This document shows positions 3,180 through 48,147 of a DNA stretch of 48,147 nt, piece by piece (position 1 is the first letter of the stretch; each line of letters starts with the position of its first letter). The position numbers and the translations under genes were made by a program. The notes under the pieces were generated by a model. The model had not been told where the DNA came from. It saw only the letters and a list, made by a program, of their open reading frames with translations, and ran no database searches. Source of the DNA: a phage; sequence record PV636260.1. One strand, written 5' to 3'.

Positions 3180-3210
3180 TGCGCTTATCTCCTTCGTTTA
3201 CGATGAATCC

Positions 3211-3238
3211 ATTATAGCCATTAACAGCGTTTAGTCAA
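3211..3238 (-). promoter_or_regulatory. sigma70-type promoter for the exo-erf-ssb operon
   Basis: On minus strand TTGACT - 16 bp - TATAAT, about 30 nt upstream of the exonuclease RBS. Confidence 0.65.
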
Positions 3239-3647
3239 TCGGATACATGTAATTGGTGTGTAATAGCGTGTCTATATCGCTCAAGTTACAATCAGCATCA
3301 ACAGAATCAATGGCTTAATCCTGTTTTTATGTGGTGTCTATTTCGTAATACTTGTAACCGCTTTTTCTTAGAAATACACAGATATCCATGAATAGAATCA
3401 AGATTGATTATATTTTGAACAAATATGATAGAAATTTGACGAATCAATCAAATCACCTGTTACACGATATACAACTGTTACACAACAATAATTATATATA
3501 TAAAGCTAAAATTAAATATTATCTATCTATATATATTATATAGAGTTTTTATCATATCTCCCTGCGGTCGAATGAGGTCGATTTTGTAACACACCTCCCG
3601 GTTACAAAAATAGACACCTGTTACACGAAAAAATTGTAATCGAACTA

Positions 3648-8372: not shown

Positions 8373-8420
8373 GATGTTTACCTTTTTGTGCTATTTATCG
8401 GTGAACTCATTATACAGGCG

Positions 8421-14542: not shown

Positions 14543-14564
14543 GATATTTCTCCTGATTGGTTAA

Positions 14565-14583
14565 TGGCACTTTTTGTTAAAAG
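14565..14583 (+). promoter_or_regulatory. copy of the ATAGCAC...TAAAAC element (TGGCACTTTTTGTTAAAAG), plus-oriented within the minus-strand tail module
   Basis: 17/19 match to the repeated element; TACGAT 18 bp downstream. Confidence 0.4.
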
Positions 14584-18325: not shown

Positions 18326-18328
18326 ATA

Positions 18329-18348
18329 ATAGCACTTTTTGTTAAAGC
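18329..18348 (+). promoter_or_regulatory. copy of the repeated element (ATAGCACTTTTTGTTAAAGC), plus-oriented
   Basis: Sequence match; lies between decoration gene stop and capsid terminator. Confidence 0.4.
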
Positions 18349-25035: not shown

Positions 25036-25057
25036 GTTTAACATTTAGTGCTATTTT
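25036..25057 (-). promoter_or_regulatory. copy of the repeated element upstream of TerS
   Basis: Minus strand ATAGCACTAAATGTTAAAC directly upstream of the RBS. Confidence 0.45.
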
Positions 25058-26809: not shown

Positions 26810-26837
26810 TTCTATTTTCTCTCTTCGTTGTCGATGA

Positions 26838-26887
26838 GGTGACTATATCAAATCACCCCACCGACGTTTTAGCAATTAGTGCTATTT
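26838..26887 (-). promoter_or_regulatory. repeated element (ATAGCACTAATTGCTAAAAC) plus hairpin with -10-like TATAGT
   Basis: Stop codon TAG of the kinase gene lies inside the element; hairpin GGTGA-N10-TCACC. Confidence 0.55.
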
Positions 26888-28096: not shown

Positions 28097-28132
28097 GATT
28101 TATTCCTCTGATCGGTTGTTTAACTCAACGAA

Positions 28133-28181
28133 GGGCACTATATCAAATGCCCTTGAGCAAGTTTTAGCAATTCGTGCTATT
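28133..28181 (-). promoter_or_regulatory. repeated element (ATAGCACGAATTGCTAAAAC) plus hairpin with TATAGT
   Basis: Hairpin GGGCA-N10-TGCCC; element abuts the stop codon of 28180..28626. Confidence 0.55.
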
Positions 28182-31552: not shown

Positions 31553-31577
31553 GCTCTCGTCCTCATTCGTTGTCGAT

Positions 31578-31629
31578 GTGGTTACTATATCGCAACCACA
31601 TGATCGCGTTTTAACAAAAAGTGCTATTT
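31578..31629 (-). promoter_or_regulatory. repeated element (ATAGCACTTTTTGTTAAAAC) plus hairpin with TATAGT
   Basis: Hairpin GTGGTT-N10-AACCAC. Confidence 0.55.
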
Positions 31630-32519: not shown

Positions 32520-32851
32520 TGTCTATAGCTGCATTTTTTATTTTTGTAACCAGTGCAACCGATGCAACCGACTTTTTCTATAAAAGTAAGAACATCTATT
32601 TATGCGCGCGGAATAGTATGTTTTTTATACTATGCATCACGAAATATATGCCACCCTCAAAAAATGCGGTTGCACCTATTACGCCGATTACATACCAATA
32701 TATAATATAATAAATAAATAAATATATATTATCTATCTTATTATTATATATAGATATTTTATTATCTATAGGCCTATCGATTCTCTGGCCATTTTGTAAC
32801 ACCCCTGATGGTATACAACTATTACGACAATTACAACTAACGCATAGACGA

Positions 32852-35187: not shown

Positions 35188-35327
35188 TTTATATTCACAC
35201 TTTCTATACTGGCAAATTTAACAACGTAAAAAATGTTCGCGTTTACGATAGCCACCAAAAAGCAATGATGCAGAAAGTAGTTCTAGGCGGCACAACCAAA
35301 GAGTGCAAAGTAATTTCTGAGTACTGA
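35184..35327 (+). CDS. 47-aa hypothetical protein (not in ORF track)
   Basis: ATGA coupling with upstream stop; stop TGA immediately before the repeated element. Confidence 0.4.
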   Translation: MIYIHTFYTGKFNNVKNVRVYDSHQKAMMQKVVLGGTTKECKVISEY

Positions 35328-35378
35328 TAGCACGAATAGCTAAAGACAATCAGCAAGGGAGTAAGGTATATTACTCCC
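35327..35378 (+). promoter_or_regulatory. repeated element (ATAGCACGAATAGCTAAAG) plus hairpin with TATATT
   Basis: Hairpin GGGAGTA-N8-TACTCCC. Confidence 0.5.
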
Positions 35379-35404
35379 ACACCAAACAAACAAAGGAATT
35401 AAAA

Positions 35405-41901: not shown

Positions 41902-41938
41902 CTTCTGATTCCTCATTTCGTTTCTATGAAATAACTAT

Positions 41939-41977
41939 ACCCGACTTTCGCCGGGTATTTTTAGCAATTAGTGCTGT
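41939..41977 (-). promoter_or_regulatory. repeated element (AGCACTAATTGCTAAAAAT) plus hairpin, TATAGT after the hairpin
   Basis: Hairpin ACCCG-N8-CGGGT. Confidence 0.5.
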
Positions 41978-42219
41978 ACGATTGTATCAGCTTTAAGTTC
42001 TTCCACGTCTTTCTGTATGATTGAAGGCCAATTCTCTATGTATTCATTTTTTATCTCATCGAAAGACATATCAAGAGAACTAGTGAACTCCCACAGATCG
42101 CAACCAATAACATCCTGAGTCAATCCGTTTCGCTCCATAATTTCGCAGCAGGTAGCTCGATAAAGCAGCCATAAACCTTGATCAGTTAACTTAACCGGAA
42201 TCATTTTCTCGTTAATCAT
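41968..42219 (-). CDS. hypothetical protein
   Basis: ATGA coupling with the dam stop; RBS GAGGAAAG. Confidence 0.5.
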   Translation of the reverse strand: MINEKMIPVKLTDQGLWLLYRATCCEIMERNGLTQDVIGCDLWEFTSSLDMSFDEIKNEYIENWPSIIQKDVEELKADTIVQH

Positions 42220-43002: not shown

Positions 43003-43413
43003 CATCATTTCGTATATTGCGATCTTGAATTGCTCAAATCCGTATGCAACGGCAGAGAATCCACCGCGATCCCGAACCTTTTTGAGAAACTCCCTTTGCT
43101 TATCGCTGACTGGTGACGCCTTTCCCTTGCCGGACTTATTAACCCGTTTGAGTTCGATAGCTGCGAACGGGTAACGTGAGTTTACACCAATCAGGATAAC
43201 GAAATCTGAAACACCTTTAAGTAATCCAGCCTGCTCATCCCTGAGTGCTGAAGTGATTGTTTTTTCACCTTCATTTACAGTGTGCCAAAATAGAAGGTGT
43301 GGAAAGTTGTATTTCAGCCAGGAAACGCAATCTACCTGATGAGCGTCCTCCTTTCTAGTGTCGCTAGGATCTCGATCGTAAAACTCTAAGTAATCGCCTT
43401 TATCTGTAATCAT
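42997..43413 (-). CDS. VRR-NUC domain nuclease
   Basis: Motifs VSDFVIL and AIELKR typical of VRR-NUC; ATGA coupling with helicase. Confidence 0.65.
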   Translation of the reverse strand: MITDKGDYLEFYDRDPSDTRKEDAHQVDCVSWLKYNFPHLLFWHTVNEGEKTITSALRDEQAGLLKGVSDFVILIGVNSRYPFAAIELKRVNKSGKGKASPVSDKQREFLKKVRDRGGFSAVAYGFEQFKIAIYEMMK

Positions 43414-45422
43414 TCCGGGATATCCTCCATACCGAAGTCTTTGCGTGAGATAATATCTTCTTTCTTCTGGTTGCGACGATGAGTTACGCGTACCGGGTGA
43501 GCGATATGATGTGCGTACTGCACGATCTTGATGGCGTTCTTCATTCCGATAAAGTAGCGACGCATTTTAGGATCTGACACATGAGGAAGTACACCTTTAG
43601 TTTTCCATAGCGTACCGCAAATCTTAGAGTCAGACTCGGGGAAGAATTTTTCATACGCCTTGAACTCATCACCATCGTCGTTAATCAGCATGTATTTGTA
43701 TATTATGCCTTTCTGGTTTTTGGTTAGCGTAACTTCAAAATTCTTTACCTCGTACCAGTCATTCTTAGTGTACGCCTTACCGGACAACTTCAGGTTCGGA
43801 TCGACAAGTGAGACATCACAACAACGACAGACTCGGGCCACAACGTCATTCTCTGCACCGCATCCTTTAACAAGGATTTTTCCGGTGCGCTCGTCAACCT
43901 GGTCCTCACAAATCTGAGAAGTCCAGAAATGATCGCAACGTTCACCATCAATGACATTAACGCATCGTCGAGCATAGAAGCTATTTACGCAACCGCATTT
44001 CGGACATTTTTTCGGATCTTTGCCATTTTCAAAACGCTTTTGGAATTGCGCCTGCTCAAGTATAGGATCGAAATAAAGCTGCCCCAACTCATCCATCGTG
44101 CCTGCGAAATCCCATACAAGATGATCTTGCTTAACCATTCCTTCAGCAACCTGCCAGGATTTAAGAAGTCGCATACCCCTACCCAAAAGCTGAATCAGCA
44201 AGGTAAGAGATCCTATCTTGCGAAGTATTACACTAAAATCCCAATTTGGAACGTTAACGCCAGTAGTTAGCGCCATGACTTGAAAGGTGTATTTAATTTT
44301 CCCGGCCCTCACATCATCAAGAATCTTCTTGCGCGTTTTAGTGTCTGTGTCGCCAGTAATAATTGCATATGTGCTTCCTGGTGGTAGTGCCGCCGCCGCC
44401 TCTTTGCAGTGACGCACACCAGCGCATGTAATCAGAACTGCGTTACGCTCTTCAGCCTTTTTGGCAACCATTTGCATGATTCGCTGAGTAAGAGATTTAT
44501 CATGAAGGATCTCATCTTCCATTGCCTTCATATCTTTCTCTGTAAAGTCCTGTACACCATCCTCGCTTGATGCCTTAAATTTATCAAGATCGTAGTGAAC
44601 TCCGTCCGTAGAACCGAATATAGTCGGAACGACTGAGCCAAACTCAATAAGGTAGTTGGTGTCTATATCAGTAACGCGCTCACGCCAGAATCCTAACGCC
44701 TTTGGATTCTCAACAAGAATAGGAACTACGCCCCTAAATTCAGATCCGGTCATACCAAATATTCTAAGGTCGTGACCGTGAACCTGTTTACAGCGTCGCA
44801 TCATTTCCATGATTACGATCGTGTACTGACTGCGCTTAGTTCCAAGAAGAGGCTTTCCATCATTACCAATCAGAGGAGTATCACCGTCCATGATAATTTT
44901 CCCTTTCTCTCCCCGCATCTGTTCCATCGTTTCCTTGCCTTCGATAGCTTGCGCAAGGTCTTCCCAATCCACCTGGTGACATTCATCGATCCCGATTACG
45001 TGAGGGACAAAATCAGATAACTCATTATTTAGACCATTTGCAACAGTTCCCTCAGATCCAACCACGATAGGGAAGTAGCAAGACTTGATTCCAAGTGACG
45101 CTGAGAATATAGAGTTAGTCACCCCGAAATTGTCGATCTCTTCACTATCCTGATCGACAATCTCACCCTGGCGTGCCAGAACAAGCATTTTCAAGCCCAT
45201 TTTTTGACACTGCTTTGCAACCATAGCAAAAATGATGGTCTTACCCGCAGATACTGACGCTTTAACAAAGAATGGATGCTCGTAATTTGACAGGCGTTTC
45301 GCGATCTCGGCATAAGCAACAACCTGGTACGGATAAGGAACAACCTCACCAACAGTAAATCGCTCCTGAGTTCGCTTTATGTAGTCCTCGCCAAGTAATG
45401 CAATCTGTTTTTTAATGTTCAT
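43410..45422 (-). CDS. SF2 DNA helicase (DEAD/DEAH-like) with C-terminal Cys-rich zinc-binding region
   Basis: Walker A VSAGKT, DEAH-like GIDECHQ, C-terminal CPKCGC...C...C cluster; start ATG 45422 (GTG 45428 possible). Confidence 0.8.
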   Translation of the reverse strand: MNIKKQIALLGEDYIKRTQERFTVGEVVPYPYQVVAYAEIAKRLSNYEHPFFVKASVSAGKTIIFAMVAKQCQKMGLKMLVLARQGEIVDQDSEEIDNFGVTNSIFSASLGIKSCYFPIVVGSEGTVANGLNNELSDFVPHVIGIDECHQVDWEDLAQAIEGKETMEQMRGEKGKIIMDGDTPLIGNDGKPLLGTKRSQYTIVIMEMMRRCKQVHGHDLRIFGMTGSEFRGVVPILVENPKALGFWRERVTDIDTNYLIEFGSVVPTIFGSTDGVHYDLDKFKASSEDGVQDFTEKDMKAMEDEILHDKSLTQRIMQMVAKKAEERNAVLITCAGVRHCKEAAAALPPGSTYAIITGDTDTKTRKKILDDVRAGKIKYTFQVMALTTGVNVPNWDFSVILRKIGSLTLLIQLLGRGMRLLKSWQVAEGMVKQDHLVWDFAGTMDELGQLYFDPILEQAQFQKRFENGKDPKKCPKCGCVNSFYARRCVNVIDGERCDHFWTSQICEDQVDERTGKILVKGCGAENDVVARVCRCCDVSLVDPNLKLSGKAYTKNDWYEVKNFEVTLTKNQKGIIYKYMLINDDGDEFKAYEKFFPESDSKICGTLWKTKGVLPHVSDPKMRRYFIGMKNAIKIVQYAHHIAHPVRVTHRRNQKKEDIISRKDFGMEDIPE

Positions 45423-45441
45423 TGTCACGGCTATTAATCCT

Positions 45442-45470
45442 TTGAATCGTTGTAACGTTTACGCTATAAT
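45442..45470 (+). promoter_or_regulatory. sigma70-type promoter for the HTH regulator gene
   Basis: TTGAAT - 17 bp - TATAAT; flanked by inverted repeat AACGTTTAC / GTAAACGTT. Confidence 0.6.
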
Positions 45471-45488
45471 ACACGGCATAAAGTAAAC

Positions 45489-45510
45489 GTTTTTAGCAAA
45501 AAGTGCTATA
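45489..45510 (-). promoter_or_regulatory. repeated element (ATAGCACTTTTTGCTAAAAAC) upstream of the helicase
   Basis: Its -10-like TATTAT is the complement of the plus-strand TATAAT region. Confidence 0.5.
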
Positions 45511-45521
45511 GGAGAATCAAG

Positions 45522-45974
45522 ATGAGTATTCAACGTATCGCAGAGTCAACTGGTGAAATCGATAAACGTCACATCAATGGTAACAACGGAACACGGCGCG
45601 GTAAAGATAAAAAGCCTCGACAGCGTTGCGGGTTCTATATTCATAAAGAAGAAACACGCGCCGGACTGCGAGCGCGACTTGATGCTCTTATCGAATATTA
45701 CGGCGGCCCTGCGGCCTGCGCAAAGGCTCTAAAAGTTAGCAATCAGACGGTGCAAGGCTGGAAAGATCGAAATATGATTTCATGGCAAGGCGCTGAAGCT
45801 GCGCATCGCGCTTACCGCCGACAGGGGTGCAAAGGATTTCGTGCCGCATGGTTGCGATTCGACCTGAAGTTTGACGGTAACGGCAAGTGCCTTGAGAAGC
45901 GATGCAAGAACAAGAAATTTATGCGCGTCGTGAAGAAGGAAGATATCGGAACTACCAATAGCATTTTTAGTTAA
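45522..45974 (+). CDS. putative DNA-binding regulator (Cro/YdaS-like HTH)
   Basis: RBS AGGAGA; HTH-like AACAKALKVSNQTVQGWKDRNMIS; Cys/His and basic residues. Confidence 0.5.
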   Translation: MSIQRIAESTGEIDKRHINGNNGTRRGKDKKPRQRCGFYIHKEETRAGLRARLDALIEYYGGPAACAKALKVSNQTVQGWKDRNMISWQGAEAAHRAYRRQGCKGFRAAWLRFDLKFDGNGKCLEKRCKNKKFMRVVKKEDIGTTNSIFS

Positions 45975-45977
45975 AAC
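45958..45977 (+). promoter_or_regulatory. variant repeated element (ATAGCATTTTTAGTTAAAAC) overlapping the regulator stop
   Basis: Sequence match. Confidence 0.4.
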
Positions 45978-45982
45978 AAACG

Positions 45983-46019
45983 ACGCGTAGCGGGTTAACA
46001 TCCTTATACGCGTTTTTTA
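45983..46019 (+). terminator. terminator/attenuator-like hairpin upstream of primase
   Basis: ACGCGTA-N17-TACGCGT followed by TTTTTTATTTT. Confidence 0.45.
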
Positions 46020-46035
46020 TTTTGGAGATCTGGAA

Positions 46036-47071: not shown

Positions 47072-48147
47072 ATGGCTTTATATAGACGCGGTACAGCATC
47101 AATGGATGCAGATGGAACGGTTCGCGGAACCGACACAAAATGGAAGGATCAGCTTGCTCTGATTCGAGTAGGTGCAACTATCGTATTCCTGGAGCAACCA
47201 ATTAAGCTGGCTGTAATCAGCGATATCGTGAGCGACACTGAGTTAAAGGCTATCTCTACGGATGGTCAGACTGCCGCTGACGGTAAGTATGTGATCCTGC
47301 TTAACGATTCACTGACTGTAAACGGCTTAGCTCAAAACGTTGCTGAAACGCTGCGATACTACCAGAGCAAAGAAACTGAGATTGCTGCGGCTCTTGATAT
47401 CATCAATCAGCTTGATATGGATAAACTTGAGCAAATAGTTACTGAGGTGAATAAGGCGAAATCTGATTCTCAAGCTGCGCAAAATCAGGCTGAATTAGCG
47501 CGTGACGCAGCCAACGCTGCACGAGATGAAACTAACTCAATCAAGAACCAGACTCAACAAATTGTTGACGGTGCTGTAGGTAGTATTAATGCAGCAAAGG
47601 ATCAGGCCATTACTGATATAGGATCTAAGGAATCATCTGTCATCACTCACATTGACACTGAAGAGGCGGCAGCGATTCAGGCCATTAATGACGCGAAAGG
47701 TGATTTATCTGGTTACGTTAATGACGCTCAAACGGCAGCACAAACTGCGACCTCTGCAAAAAATGACGCTCAGGTAGCGCGTGACAATGCGGTAAGCGCA
47801 AAAGATGCGGCGGCGGTAAGTGCTCAGGAAGCGAAAGACGCAGCAAATAGCGTTAATGCTGAAAACCTTTTAACTAAGGACGGTAATTTAGCTGGTCTTG
47901 TGGATAAATTAGAATCATGGAAAAACTTGAGGCCAGACGCCCCATTAGAGTTACTTAAAGATCCTGAAGGCAACATGGACGCAACTACTAAGGGTTGGGT
48001 TGAGAAAGGCCTAAAAGTAAACGACTGGTCTATTTATAAAAATGTAGACTCTGAGCCGCCAAGCGGTTCCGATTCTTCAGGCGGCAGGATTGATTCAAAA
48101 TTCAAGGTTGGTGAAGTTGATAAGTACAGATCCTCTTTCGAATTGCA
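47072..48147 (+). CDS. tail fiber protein, N-terminal part (continues through the terminal duplicate into ..899; about 615 aa in total)
   Basis: RBS AAGGAG; Ala/Gln/Asp-rich coiled-coil shaft; reading frame continuous with the ORF ending at 899. Confidence 0.8.
   Translation, partial: MALYRRGTASMDADGTVRGTDTKWKDQLALIRVGATIVFLEQPIKLAVISDIVSDTELKAISTDGQTAADGKYVILLNDSLTVNGLAQNVAETLRYYQSKETEIAAALDIINQLDMDKLEQIVTEVNKAKSDSQAAQNQAELARDAANAARDETNSIKNQTQQIVDGAVGSINAAKDQAITDIGSKESSVITHIDTEEAAAIQAINDAKGDLSGYVNDAQTAAQTATSAKNDAQVARDNAVSAKDAAAVSAQEAKDAANSVNAENLLTKDGNLAGLVDKLESWKNLRPDAPLELLKDPEGNMDATTKGWVEKGLKVNDWSIYKNVDSEPPSGSDSSGGRIDSKFKVGEVDKYRSSFEL

Follow-up and report, generated by a model that had tools for sequence, protein, structure and literature searches.

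Organization of the helicase-pir gap

The stretch of DNA analyzed here, referred to as the window, is phage sequence record PV636260.1 at its full length of 48,147 nucleotides; judging from its sequence, it is the almost complete genome of a T1-like coliphage (Tunavirus). Genes of phage T1 map onto it at roughly 80-100% identity. Our subject is the 93 bp gap between a helicase gene (ST22, minus strand) and the regulator gene pir (ST23, plus strand), a region that is 98.3% identical to phage T1 over the 401 bases surrounding the gap. Between the helicase ATG and the pir ATG a single base differs from T1, at position 45513 within the pir Shine-Dalgarno sequence. The helicase product matches the Pfam families Helicase_C and ResIII and is 92% identical to T1 ST22. 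The CRISPR interference guide used against pir in the published T1 work (PMC6737242) corresponds to 45609-45628 of the window with one mismatch. The features of the locus are collected in Table 1.

Table 1 Features of the helicase-pir locus (positions in the window)
Feature	Position	Strand	Basis or remark
Helicase gene (T1 ST22 homologue)	43410..45428	-	Open reading frame (ORF) list; GTG start 45428, alternative ATG 45422
Helicase Shine-Dalgarno AAGGA	45439..45443	-	Read from sequence
Ppir -35 hexamer TTGAAT	45442..45447	+	Sequence
Inverted repeat, left arm AACGTTTAC	45454..45462		Sequence
Predicted helicase transcription start (A)	45459	-	Inferred; 7 nt past leftward -10
Shared pseudo-palindromic -10 heptamer TATAATA	45465..45471	both	TATAAT (+), TATTAT (-)
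Predicted pir transcription start (+/-1)	45477	+	Inferred from -10; 45-nt leader
Inverted repeat, right arm GTAAACGTT	45483..45491		Sequence
Drexlerviridae 21-nt repeat TATAGCACTTTTTGCTAAAA	45491..45510	-	Matches consensus aaATAGCACnnnTTGnTAAAA
pir Shine-Dalgarno AGGAG	45510..45514	+	Sequence
pir (T1 ST23/orf23), 150-aa transcription regulator	45522..45974	+	ORF list, T1 mapping
pir-unit downstream boundary: second repeat, hairpin ACGCGTA/TACGCGT, T-run	45957..46023	+	

An initial annotation of this DNA had placed two interleaved divergent promoters in the gap, and the arrangement of the elements bears out this description. Reading rightward into pir, a near-consensus sigma70 promoter is present as claimed, with the -35 hexamer TTGAAT separated by a 17-nt spacer from TATAAT (45465-45470, plus strand). 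Reading leftward into helicase, the hexamer TATTAT (45471..45466, minus strand) is indeed the complement of the TATAAT region, offset by one base, and positions 2 and 6 of each -10 hexamer pair with positions 6 and 2 of the other. The repeated element that had been assigned to the helicase gene does lie inside the predicted 5' untranslated region of pir (45477-45521). The helicase Shine-Dalgarno sequence shares 2 nt with the pir -35 hexamer on the plus strand, and the repeat adjoins the pir Shine-Dalgarno sequence. On the helicase strand the order of elements is TTGCTA, 22 nt, TATTAT, and at 17-nt spacing from the leftward -10 stands AAAAAC, which matches the -35 consensus in 1/6 positions. 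The predicted starts at 45477 (plus strand) and 45459 (minus strand) are 18 bp apart, and the predicted helicase leader to the GTG is 31 nt long, A/C-rich, and begins with AACGTTACAACGATTCAAAGGA. The opposite -10 elements thus overlap with positions 2 and 6 paired, which is the arrangement of the 18-bp class of bidirectional promoters. From these sequence features the gap is probably a compact bidirectional promoter, with leftward transcription as its predicted half.

A sigma70 match of 10/12 is by itself unremarkable, as 4 such sites occur in 2 kb against 3.2 expected. Ppir is one of only four matches of at least 10/12 in the window that are both intergenic and located just upstream of a same-strand gene. 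Because the genome holds very few sigma70-like intergenic promoters, most of its genes need another promoter type.

A putative repeat-associated promoter module

The element at 45491-45510 is a copy of the 21-nt direct repeat aaATAGCACnnnTTGnTAAAA known from phages TLS, T1, Rtp and Rogue1 (PMC11447400), and it agrees with 15/16 specified positions of this consensus. The authors of that report listed the function of the repeat as an open question and suggested a stoperator, an enhancer site or an UP-like element. Members of the family are intergenic, oriented with the downstream gene and located ~76 nt before its start codon. The helicase copy is placed in the same manner, as it faces helicase with its downstream end 62 nt and its upstream end ~82 nt from the GTG. 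Start codons follow the repeat by 52-65 nt in most modules. The core of the repeat is a perfect 5+5 palindrome, TAGCA-N5-TGCTA, located in the gap at 45494-45508 with its centre at 45501 and half-site centres 10 bp apart. Allowing one mismatch or less, the window contains 19 copies of this palindrome against 1.37 expected, and 0/100 shuffles reach 19. The centres of the palindrome are of several types (TTT, GAA and TAA), the T-type being CACTTTTTG and the G-type CACGAATTG.

The repeat is tied to a -10 element at a fixed distance. With repeats called at 13 or more of 16 matches, 13/23 modules in the window have TAnnnT exactly 22 nt (N22) after TTGnTA, against a background of 1.5% (binomial P = 2.6e-18), and none of the other offsets from 8 to 39 is used by more than 2 modules. 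The same N22 peak appears in the T1 RefSeq genome (15/23), in TLS (11/21) and in Vibrio phage Vc1 (8/25, scanned at a looser threshold of 12 or more of 16). Taking the module rule as TAnnnT located 22 +/-1 nt after TTGnTA, the helicase copy conforms, with TATTAT at N22. As the predicted helicase start is 7 nt past this hexamer, the palindrome would be centred at -42, and no -35 is present at normal spacing. Given the predicted start, the leftward arm therefore has the geometry of a class II activator-dependent promoter, namely a site near -42 and no -35 consensus. The palindrome would extend over -49..-35 of the helicase start; relative to the predicted pir start it would be centred at +25 and cover +18..+32.

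Two other ways of reading the repeat as a promoter element were rejected. A sigma54 (-24/-12) promoter (TGGCAC-N5-TTGCW) does not fit, since the repeat reads TAGCAC-N4-TTGC with 8 nt rather than 10 between the conserved G residues, and this reading is also at odds with a -10 at N22. Use of TTGCTA as a -35 by host sigma70 would demand a spacer of 22 nt, which is too long.

Two further elements recur in the modules. An A/C-rich leader, CATCGA(A/C)AACGA, follows the N22 hexamer by ~10-25 nt in most modules and precedes the Shine-Dalgarno sequence (for example at 26825-26840, 31567-31582 and 45436-45452), and the helicase version reads ACAACGA. A stable hairpin (z < -2) covers the spacer and the -10 in 14/23 modules, compared with 7/100 random control segments, and the stems are of unrelated sequence from copy to copy. 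The helicase copy belongs with these hairpin-bearing modules (-11.2 kcal/mol, z = -2.7); further examples are 26825-26886, 28116-28181, 35326-35385 and 41917-41978. Such hairpins cannot form in RNA made from the module's own promoter; possible roles are insulation against read-through or formation of a DNA cruciform. The palindromic core, the fixed N22 -10, the hairpins and the antisense placement of a copy in the pir leader are all new relative to the TLS report (PMC11447400).

The late (structural) region has repeats as well. The start of tail gene ST33 is preceded at 3 nt by one copy (8376-8395) and terS at 15 nt by another (25036-25055), and a third (14563-14582) stands closely upstream of the ST40 ribosome-binding site in reverse orientation, an arrangement also seen at pir. 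Upstream of the major capsid gene, a further copy (18328-18347) falls within the spacer of a sigma70-like TTGACG-16-TATTAT. These positions suggest that the same site may repress, or otherwise act on, late genes.

Conservation among relatives

Relatives of the locus were collected by a protein-alignment scan of viral contigs, because a single-protein scan recovered close relatives only and an alignment-based scan was needed for diverged ones. The scan yielded 80 loci (L017-L096) with Pir proteins 51-100% identical to the query, and conservation was counted over their 65 distinct helicase-pir intergenic sequences. A palindrome with two mismatches or fewer is located just upstream of the pir ribosome-binding site in 65/65 sequences. 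The symmetric heptamer TANNNTA is present in 64/65, reading TATAATA in 48 of them, and all 64 heptamer-bearing sequences keep a rightward sigma70 match of 9-11/12. On the helicase strand TAnnnT is found at N21 or N22 in 63/65 sequences and at N23 in the other two. In an alignment of 18 lineages (A3) conservation is confined to the repeat, the -10 and the helicase Shine-Dalgarno. The repeat forms an invariant block, the CCTTT block of the helicase Shine-Dalgarno and the A and T positions of the heptamer are nearly invariant, and the 20-odd bases from the -10 to the repeat are not conserved.

The lineage represented by L073 separates the two -10 elements. Here the rightward TACAAT has moved relative to the leftward TAGTAT, and TAGTAT is still located at N21 from the repeat. 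That the leftward hexamer keeps its distance despite a shifted rightward -10 argues that the leftward arm is selected in its own right.

Published activity of the pir promoter

The same gap has been studied in T1 as the promoter Ppir (PMC6737242). A Ppir-gfp fusion spanning the whole gap is active in phage-free E. coli, and as this activity is seen without phage, the rightward arm is a promoter for the host polymerase. Ppir is repressed by Pir, by Orf65, and by cyclic AMP (cAMP)-CRP in vivo and in a cell-free system (PMC6737242). The initial annotation of a rightward promoter leading into a regulator is thus in agreement with the T1 data, where the promoter region is active and the regulator represses it. 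In the same report the targets of Pir also include Pdam and Phol, both activated, and PrecE, which is repressed; Porf65 is activated by Orf65 itself, in a manner reported to be Pir-independent. The report mapped no promoter elements, operators or divergent promoter, and it mentions neither the helicase arm nor the 21-nt repeat (PMC6737242). When we searched the literature for start-site or transcriptome data on the T1 family and for the sequence of the repeat, only the TLS and Pir papers came up.

The reporter fragments can be read against the module. The leftward arm has the same layout of repeat, N22 and -10 as the reporter-active Pdam and Porf65, with only 9 nt ahead of the repeat in the Porf65 fragment. 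The Pdam and Ppir fragments share only the repeat, over 13 nt and in opposite orientation, which fits activation from a site at -42 in one and repression from a site at +25 in the other, as far as the predicted starts allow. Both proteins that activate repeat promoters, Pir and Orf65, also repress Ppir, as is expected if leftward activation excludes polymerase from the shared -10.

A candidate CRP operator in the gap was sought and rejected. No site within 3 mismatches of TGTGA-N6-TCACA was found in 45423-45521, nor does the genome as a whole show an enrichment of such sites.

The best sigma70 promoter in the genome is that of recE (3180-3240; TTGACT-16-TATAAT, 11/12), which has no repeat and yet is reported to be repressed by Pir. 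The heptamer GTAAACG lies 9 nt past the PrecE -10 and has 13 copies genome-wide against 5.4 expected. As a Pir site common to PrecE it was rejected, because its positions are mostly outside promoters and because shared 8-mers are expected by chance, at ~1.2 per pair of 200-nt fragments by our own estimate.

A proposed activator-switched promoter

These results lead us to propose that the gap is an activator-switched bidirectional promoter, in which an activator bound to the repeat turns helicase on and silences pir. We give this reading a probability of about 60%. Upon infection, host sigma70 polymerase would use the rightward arm, which bears a -35, to make Pir, and this transcript would end at the pir terminator. 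The helicase promoter would be a member of the roughly 20-copy family of 21-nt-repeat promoters, with the palindrome ~42 bp upstream of its start. An activator, most likely Pir itself, would then bind the palindrome, and in Tunavirus Orf65 may also act. The repeat-bound activator would recruit polymerase leftward and turn the replication genes on, and pir would be turned off through polymerase competition, possibly with a roadblock as well. As a single heptamer, TATAATA, supplies one -10 hexamer from each of its strands, polymerase could occupy the site in only one orientation at a time. The proposal builds on the observed geometry, on its conservation and, in T1, on the activity of Ppir and its repression by Pir and Orf65. 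We infer both start sites, the leftward activity, which protein binds the repeat, and that repression works by competition.

A broader proposal is that the repeat, the N22 -10 and the hairpin define an uncharacterized phage promoter class, in which Pir would act as a class II activator at about 20 promoters and extinguish its own synthesis. We regard this extension as possible, with the odds somewhat against it.

Pir is the best candidate for the protein that binds the repeat, although we rate its chances a little short of even. Its AlphaFold2 model has a mean predicted local distance difference test score (pLDDT) above 90 in each 10-residue block from residues 41 to 130. The best structural matches in the PDB are the dimeric all-alpha Xfaso1 Cro and N15 Cro (TM-score to target about 0.7), and weak sequence matches are to Pfam P22_Cro and PDB Cro. 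On the basis of the model, Pir is classed as a Cro-like all-alpha helix-turn-helix regulator. It occurs in 825 phage records, and this spread is in line with the presence of the repeat in every genus examined. Orf65 was rejected as a universal repeat binder since it occurs in 65 records against 825 for Pir; no Pfam domain was found in Orf65, and its structural model was unusable (pLDDT 52). Conservation in Pir is highest not in the recognition helix but in a basic motif at the N-terminus, STGEIDKRxxNGNNGTRRGKD, for which disorder is predicted.

Several observations weigh against the activator-switched reading. Regarding Pir, the Pir-responsive fragments Phol (activated) and PrecE (repressed) are without the repeat, while Porf65 has a perfect repeat and yet is Pir-independent, so Pir can be no simple universal activator of repeat promoters. 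In Vibrio phage Vc1 (L098), Pir is only 44-45% identical (alignment A1); phages of the Vc1 type have a strongly divergent recognition helix in Pir, yet keep the same repeat consensus and N22 rule. A divergent helix facing the same repeat points to recognition by something invariant, be it the Pir N-terminus, another phage factor or a host factor; covariation of recognition helix and repeat accordingly gave no support to helix-mediated recognition by Pir, which tells against the simplest version of the model. Regarding the promoter, the spacing from repeat to -10 is 21 nt rather than 22 in about half of the lineages, and the published repression of Ppir by cAMP-CRP is unexplained by the model. 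Regarding the switch, basal bidirectional transcription in E. coli is too low for competition, and exclusion is seen only when one arm is strongly activated (PMC12825309). The initial annotation had taken the overlap for a built-in switch in which occupancy in one direction excludes the other; the interleaved geometry is exact and matches the 18-bp class, but with basal competition this weak the overlap of sequences makes no switch by itself and an activator is required. The proposed exclusion would thus depend on strong leftward activation, which is a candidate step.

Alternative explanations

The best-surviving alternative, which we nonetheless hold to be unlikely, is that the repeat serves solely as a roadblock or repressor operator, where a protein bound at +18..+32 of the pir transcript would autoregulate pir much as the stoperators of mycobacteriophage L5 do, in which case TATTAT would be a by-product of the TATAAT symmetry and the helicase promoter would be weak, constitutive or elsewhere. 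The placement of the palindrome directly upstream of the pir ribosome-binding site in every relative is what such an operator predicts, late repeats stand at ribosome-binding sites or start codons as well (terS at 25036, the tail gene at 8376 and ST40 at 14563), and the stoperator idea was raised by the TLS authors (PMC11447400). In addition, the central five bases of the palindrome (45499-45503) are AAAAG or AAAAA in 63/65 distinct pir loci compared with 8/23 modules genome-wide, which suggests a pir-specific constraint; as the pir loci keep one centre type, the centre may set factor specificity. TATAAT is also nearly self-complementary, so a leftward hexamer comes free. Against this alternative, the leftward hexamer holds N21 or N22 from the repeat in 63/65 loci, even in L073 where the rightward -10 has shifted. 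The 62-nt distance from repeat to helicase start and the ACAACGA leader match the other modules, fragments of the same layout (Pdam and Porf65) act as promoters in reporters, and the ORF list offers no co-directional gene upstream of helicase for read-through.

A second alternative concerns the perfect inverted repeat of the gap. As the initial annotation had noted, this inverted repeat brackets the shared -10, its arms being 9/9 complementary across a 20-nt gap. AACGTTTAC-N20-GTAAACGTT might be a real operator, at which a dimeric or looping repressor (Pir, Orf65 or CRP) would occlude the -10 and shut both genes. We consider this improbable, and somewhat more so than a roadblock. The window holds 15 perfect 9-bp inverted repeats (loops of 3-30 nt) against 6.2 +/- 3.3 in shuffles, and one is expected in roughly 1% of 93-bp stretches; its exact placement around the -10 also speaks in its favor. 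The enrichment of GTAAACG and its position just downstream of the -10 of the Pir-repressed PrecE point the same way, but by the estimate given above chance alone would give Ppir and PrecE an 8-mer in common. Conservation is poor, contrary to the earlier expectation: outside Tunavirus the inverted repeat survives in a single other lineage, as a partial version. That version (L033/L067) is a related inverted repeat with two outer pairs swapped from AA/TT to TT/AA, which is a compensatory change; within Tunavirus, however, changes in the outer arms of L022, L023 and L029 break pairs with no compensation. Most other lineages lack the inverted repeat while keeping the rest of the design, only 7/53 distinct sequences fold with z < -2, and no conservation of the arms was seen in the 18-lineage alignment. 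As equivalent hairpins of unrelated stem sequence occur in the other modules, structure is shared and sequence is not. The inverted repeat was therefore rejected as a conserved operator, and it looks like a local version of the module hairpin rather than a dedicated operator. Each predicted mRNA lacks at least one arm, which precludes an RNA hairpin made of the two, and the activator-switched promoter does not require the inverted repeat.

A role at the RNA level, in which a pir-leader hairpin (UAGCA-AAAAG-UGCUA) beside the Shine-Dalgarno sequence would control translation or stability and the promoter overlap would be incidental, is very improbable, for although the hairpin appears in the minimum-energy and centroid folds of the pir leader, its loop is the sequence conserved in 63/65 loci, and Laganenka et al. 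speculated on a phage-encoded small RNA or riboswitch for autoinducer-2 (AI-2) control (PMC6737242), the leader folds no more stably than shuffled sequence (z = -0.84; likewise the helicase leader) and leaves the Shine-Dalgarno unpaired, no Rfam match at E <= 1 lies inside the gap, the repeat is upstream of the predicted start in most modules and hence outside the mRNA, and the effects of Pir and Orf65 were seen on promoter-gfp fusions, which is consistent with transcriptional control without proving it.

Implications

Earlier publications had established that Pir, Orf65 and CRP regulate Ppir, that the repeat exists and that there is an 18-bp bidirectional class. New here are the palindrome at -42, the N22 rule, the shared -10 at the helicase-pir gap and the family-wide conservation. 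T1-like phages are classic and very common coliphages, and the order of their gene expression is puzzling as they have neither a polymerase nor a sigma factor of their own. The locus ties together the repeat, a studied regulator (Pir) and the rules of bidirectional promoters. If the broader proposal, with Pir acting at about 20 promoters, is true, it would describe a self-limiting switch from early to middle expression, run by one protein and conserved in the Drexlerviridae genomes with pir, which number more than 800, and it would answer the published question of what the repeat does. The activator-switched reading of the gap, if correct, would be a natural and deeply conserved case of activator-driven polymerase competition at a shared -10, which has so far been shown with semi-synthetic constructs and a few E. 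coli promoters. If the reading is wrong, the gap would hold an ordinary autoregulated promoter beside a repeat.

Additional features of the genome

At the downstream end of pir, the second repeat (45957-45976) overlaps the pir stop codon, and the loop of the pir terminator hairpin holds TAACAT (45996-46001), which is the N22 -10 of the primase module. The T1 RefSeq genome has an annotated terminator at the position equivalent to this hairpin. The pir terminator and the primase-module promoter are thereby superimposed, and TLS is arranged likewise. Because both ends of pir overlap neighboring repeats or -10 elements, the pir unit shares DNA with the neighboring promoters on both sides.

Elsewhere in the genome, the window ends (1-127 and 48021-48147) are identical over 127 bases, which looks like a circular-assembly overlap or terminal redundancy. 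The window lacks counterparts of the HNH endonuclease genes ST15 and ST63 of T1 and retains a 75-nt remnant of ST8, differences that are consistent with presence/absence polymorphism of homing-endonuclease genes, as judged from the two sequences. ST72-77 and ST31/32 of the T1 RefSeq genome (L016) are likewise missing from the window. Two very AT-rich stretches (3490-3560 and 32699-32752) within long non-coding gaps contain TATATA-type palindromes and are candidates for an origin or a packaging-related region. The sequence AACCAATCAG(G/A)AGG recurs directly before start codons (for example at 2035-2063 and 14544-14560). AACCAATCAG is also the commonest 10-mer in Vibrio phage Vc1 (9 copies), and it may be an extended ribosome-binding or translation-enhancer sequence.

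Comparison with known systems

One close system is T1 itself, as the gap carries the same gene and the same promoter fragment as the Ppir of PMC6737242 with a 1-nt difference in the gap. Among bacterial promoters, the nearest likeness is to the bidirectional promoters of E. coli, whose start-site spacings range over 7-25 bp with 18 bp as the commonest class (Warman et al.; bioRxiv 10.1101/2020.01.31.928960). The helicase-pir pair has the same opposite and overlapping -10 elements with positions 2 and 6 paired, and its predicted starts are 18 bp apart. At PacrA/acrR, a CRP site placed at -40.5 of one arm turns that arm on and blocks its divergent partner (NAR 2026, PMC12825309), and repression of a divergent arm usually results from polymerase competition (Warman et al. 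2026, PMC12825309). The helicase-pir pair resembles PacrA/acrR in having a candidate activator site near -41 of one arm, and it resembles both soxS/soxR and acrA/acrR in that one arm encodes a regulator. Unlike the bacterial examples, it is a phage locus, its activated arm would belong to a roughly 20-copy family of promoters that are without a -35, and its silenced arm is probably the gene of the activator itself. It also differs from PsoxS/soxR, where SoxR binds between the -35 and the -10. A bidirectional promoter of the MerR/SoxR type was rejected for the gap, as the palindrome is not located between these elements, being upstream of the -35 position of the leftward arm and downstream of the predicted rightward start, and the rightward spacer is 17 nt, not 19-20.

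The helicase copy also behaves as the TLS repeats do (PMC11447400), facing the direction of transcription about 80 nt before the start codon. The TLS re-annotation cites the stoperators of mycobacteriophage L5 (PMC11447400), and the likeness is apparent in the many copies of a short oriented site located in short intergenic gaps along the direction of transcription. Unlike the L5 stoperators, which are asymmetric and block elongation in the prophage, the repeat has a palindromic core and is tied to a -10 at fixed distance. This fixed distance to the -10 indicates that the property of the repeat relates to initiation, unlike that of stoperators.

In phage lambda, the dimeric helix-turn-helix protein CI, bound at OR2 near -42, activates PRM and represses the divergent PR. 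PRM and PR are back-to-back promoters with separate -10 boxes about 80 bp apart, and CI works through three graded operators to activate its own gene and repress the lytic one. The helicase-pir pair shares with PRM/PR, and with class II CRP/FNR promoters, a site for a candidate helix-turn-helix protein near -42, and as in lambda the gene of the regulator is a member of the pair. Unlike lambda, the single site and the shared -10 at helicase-pir would repress the regulator's own gene.

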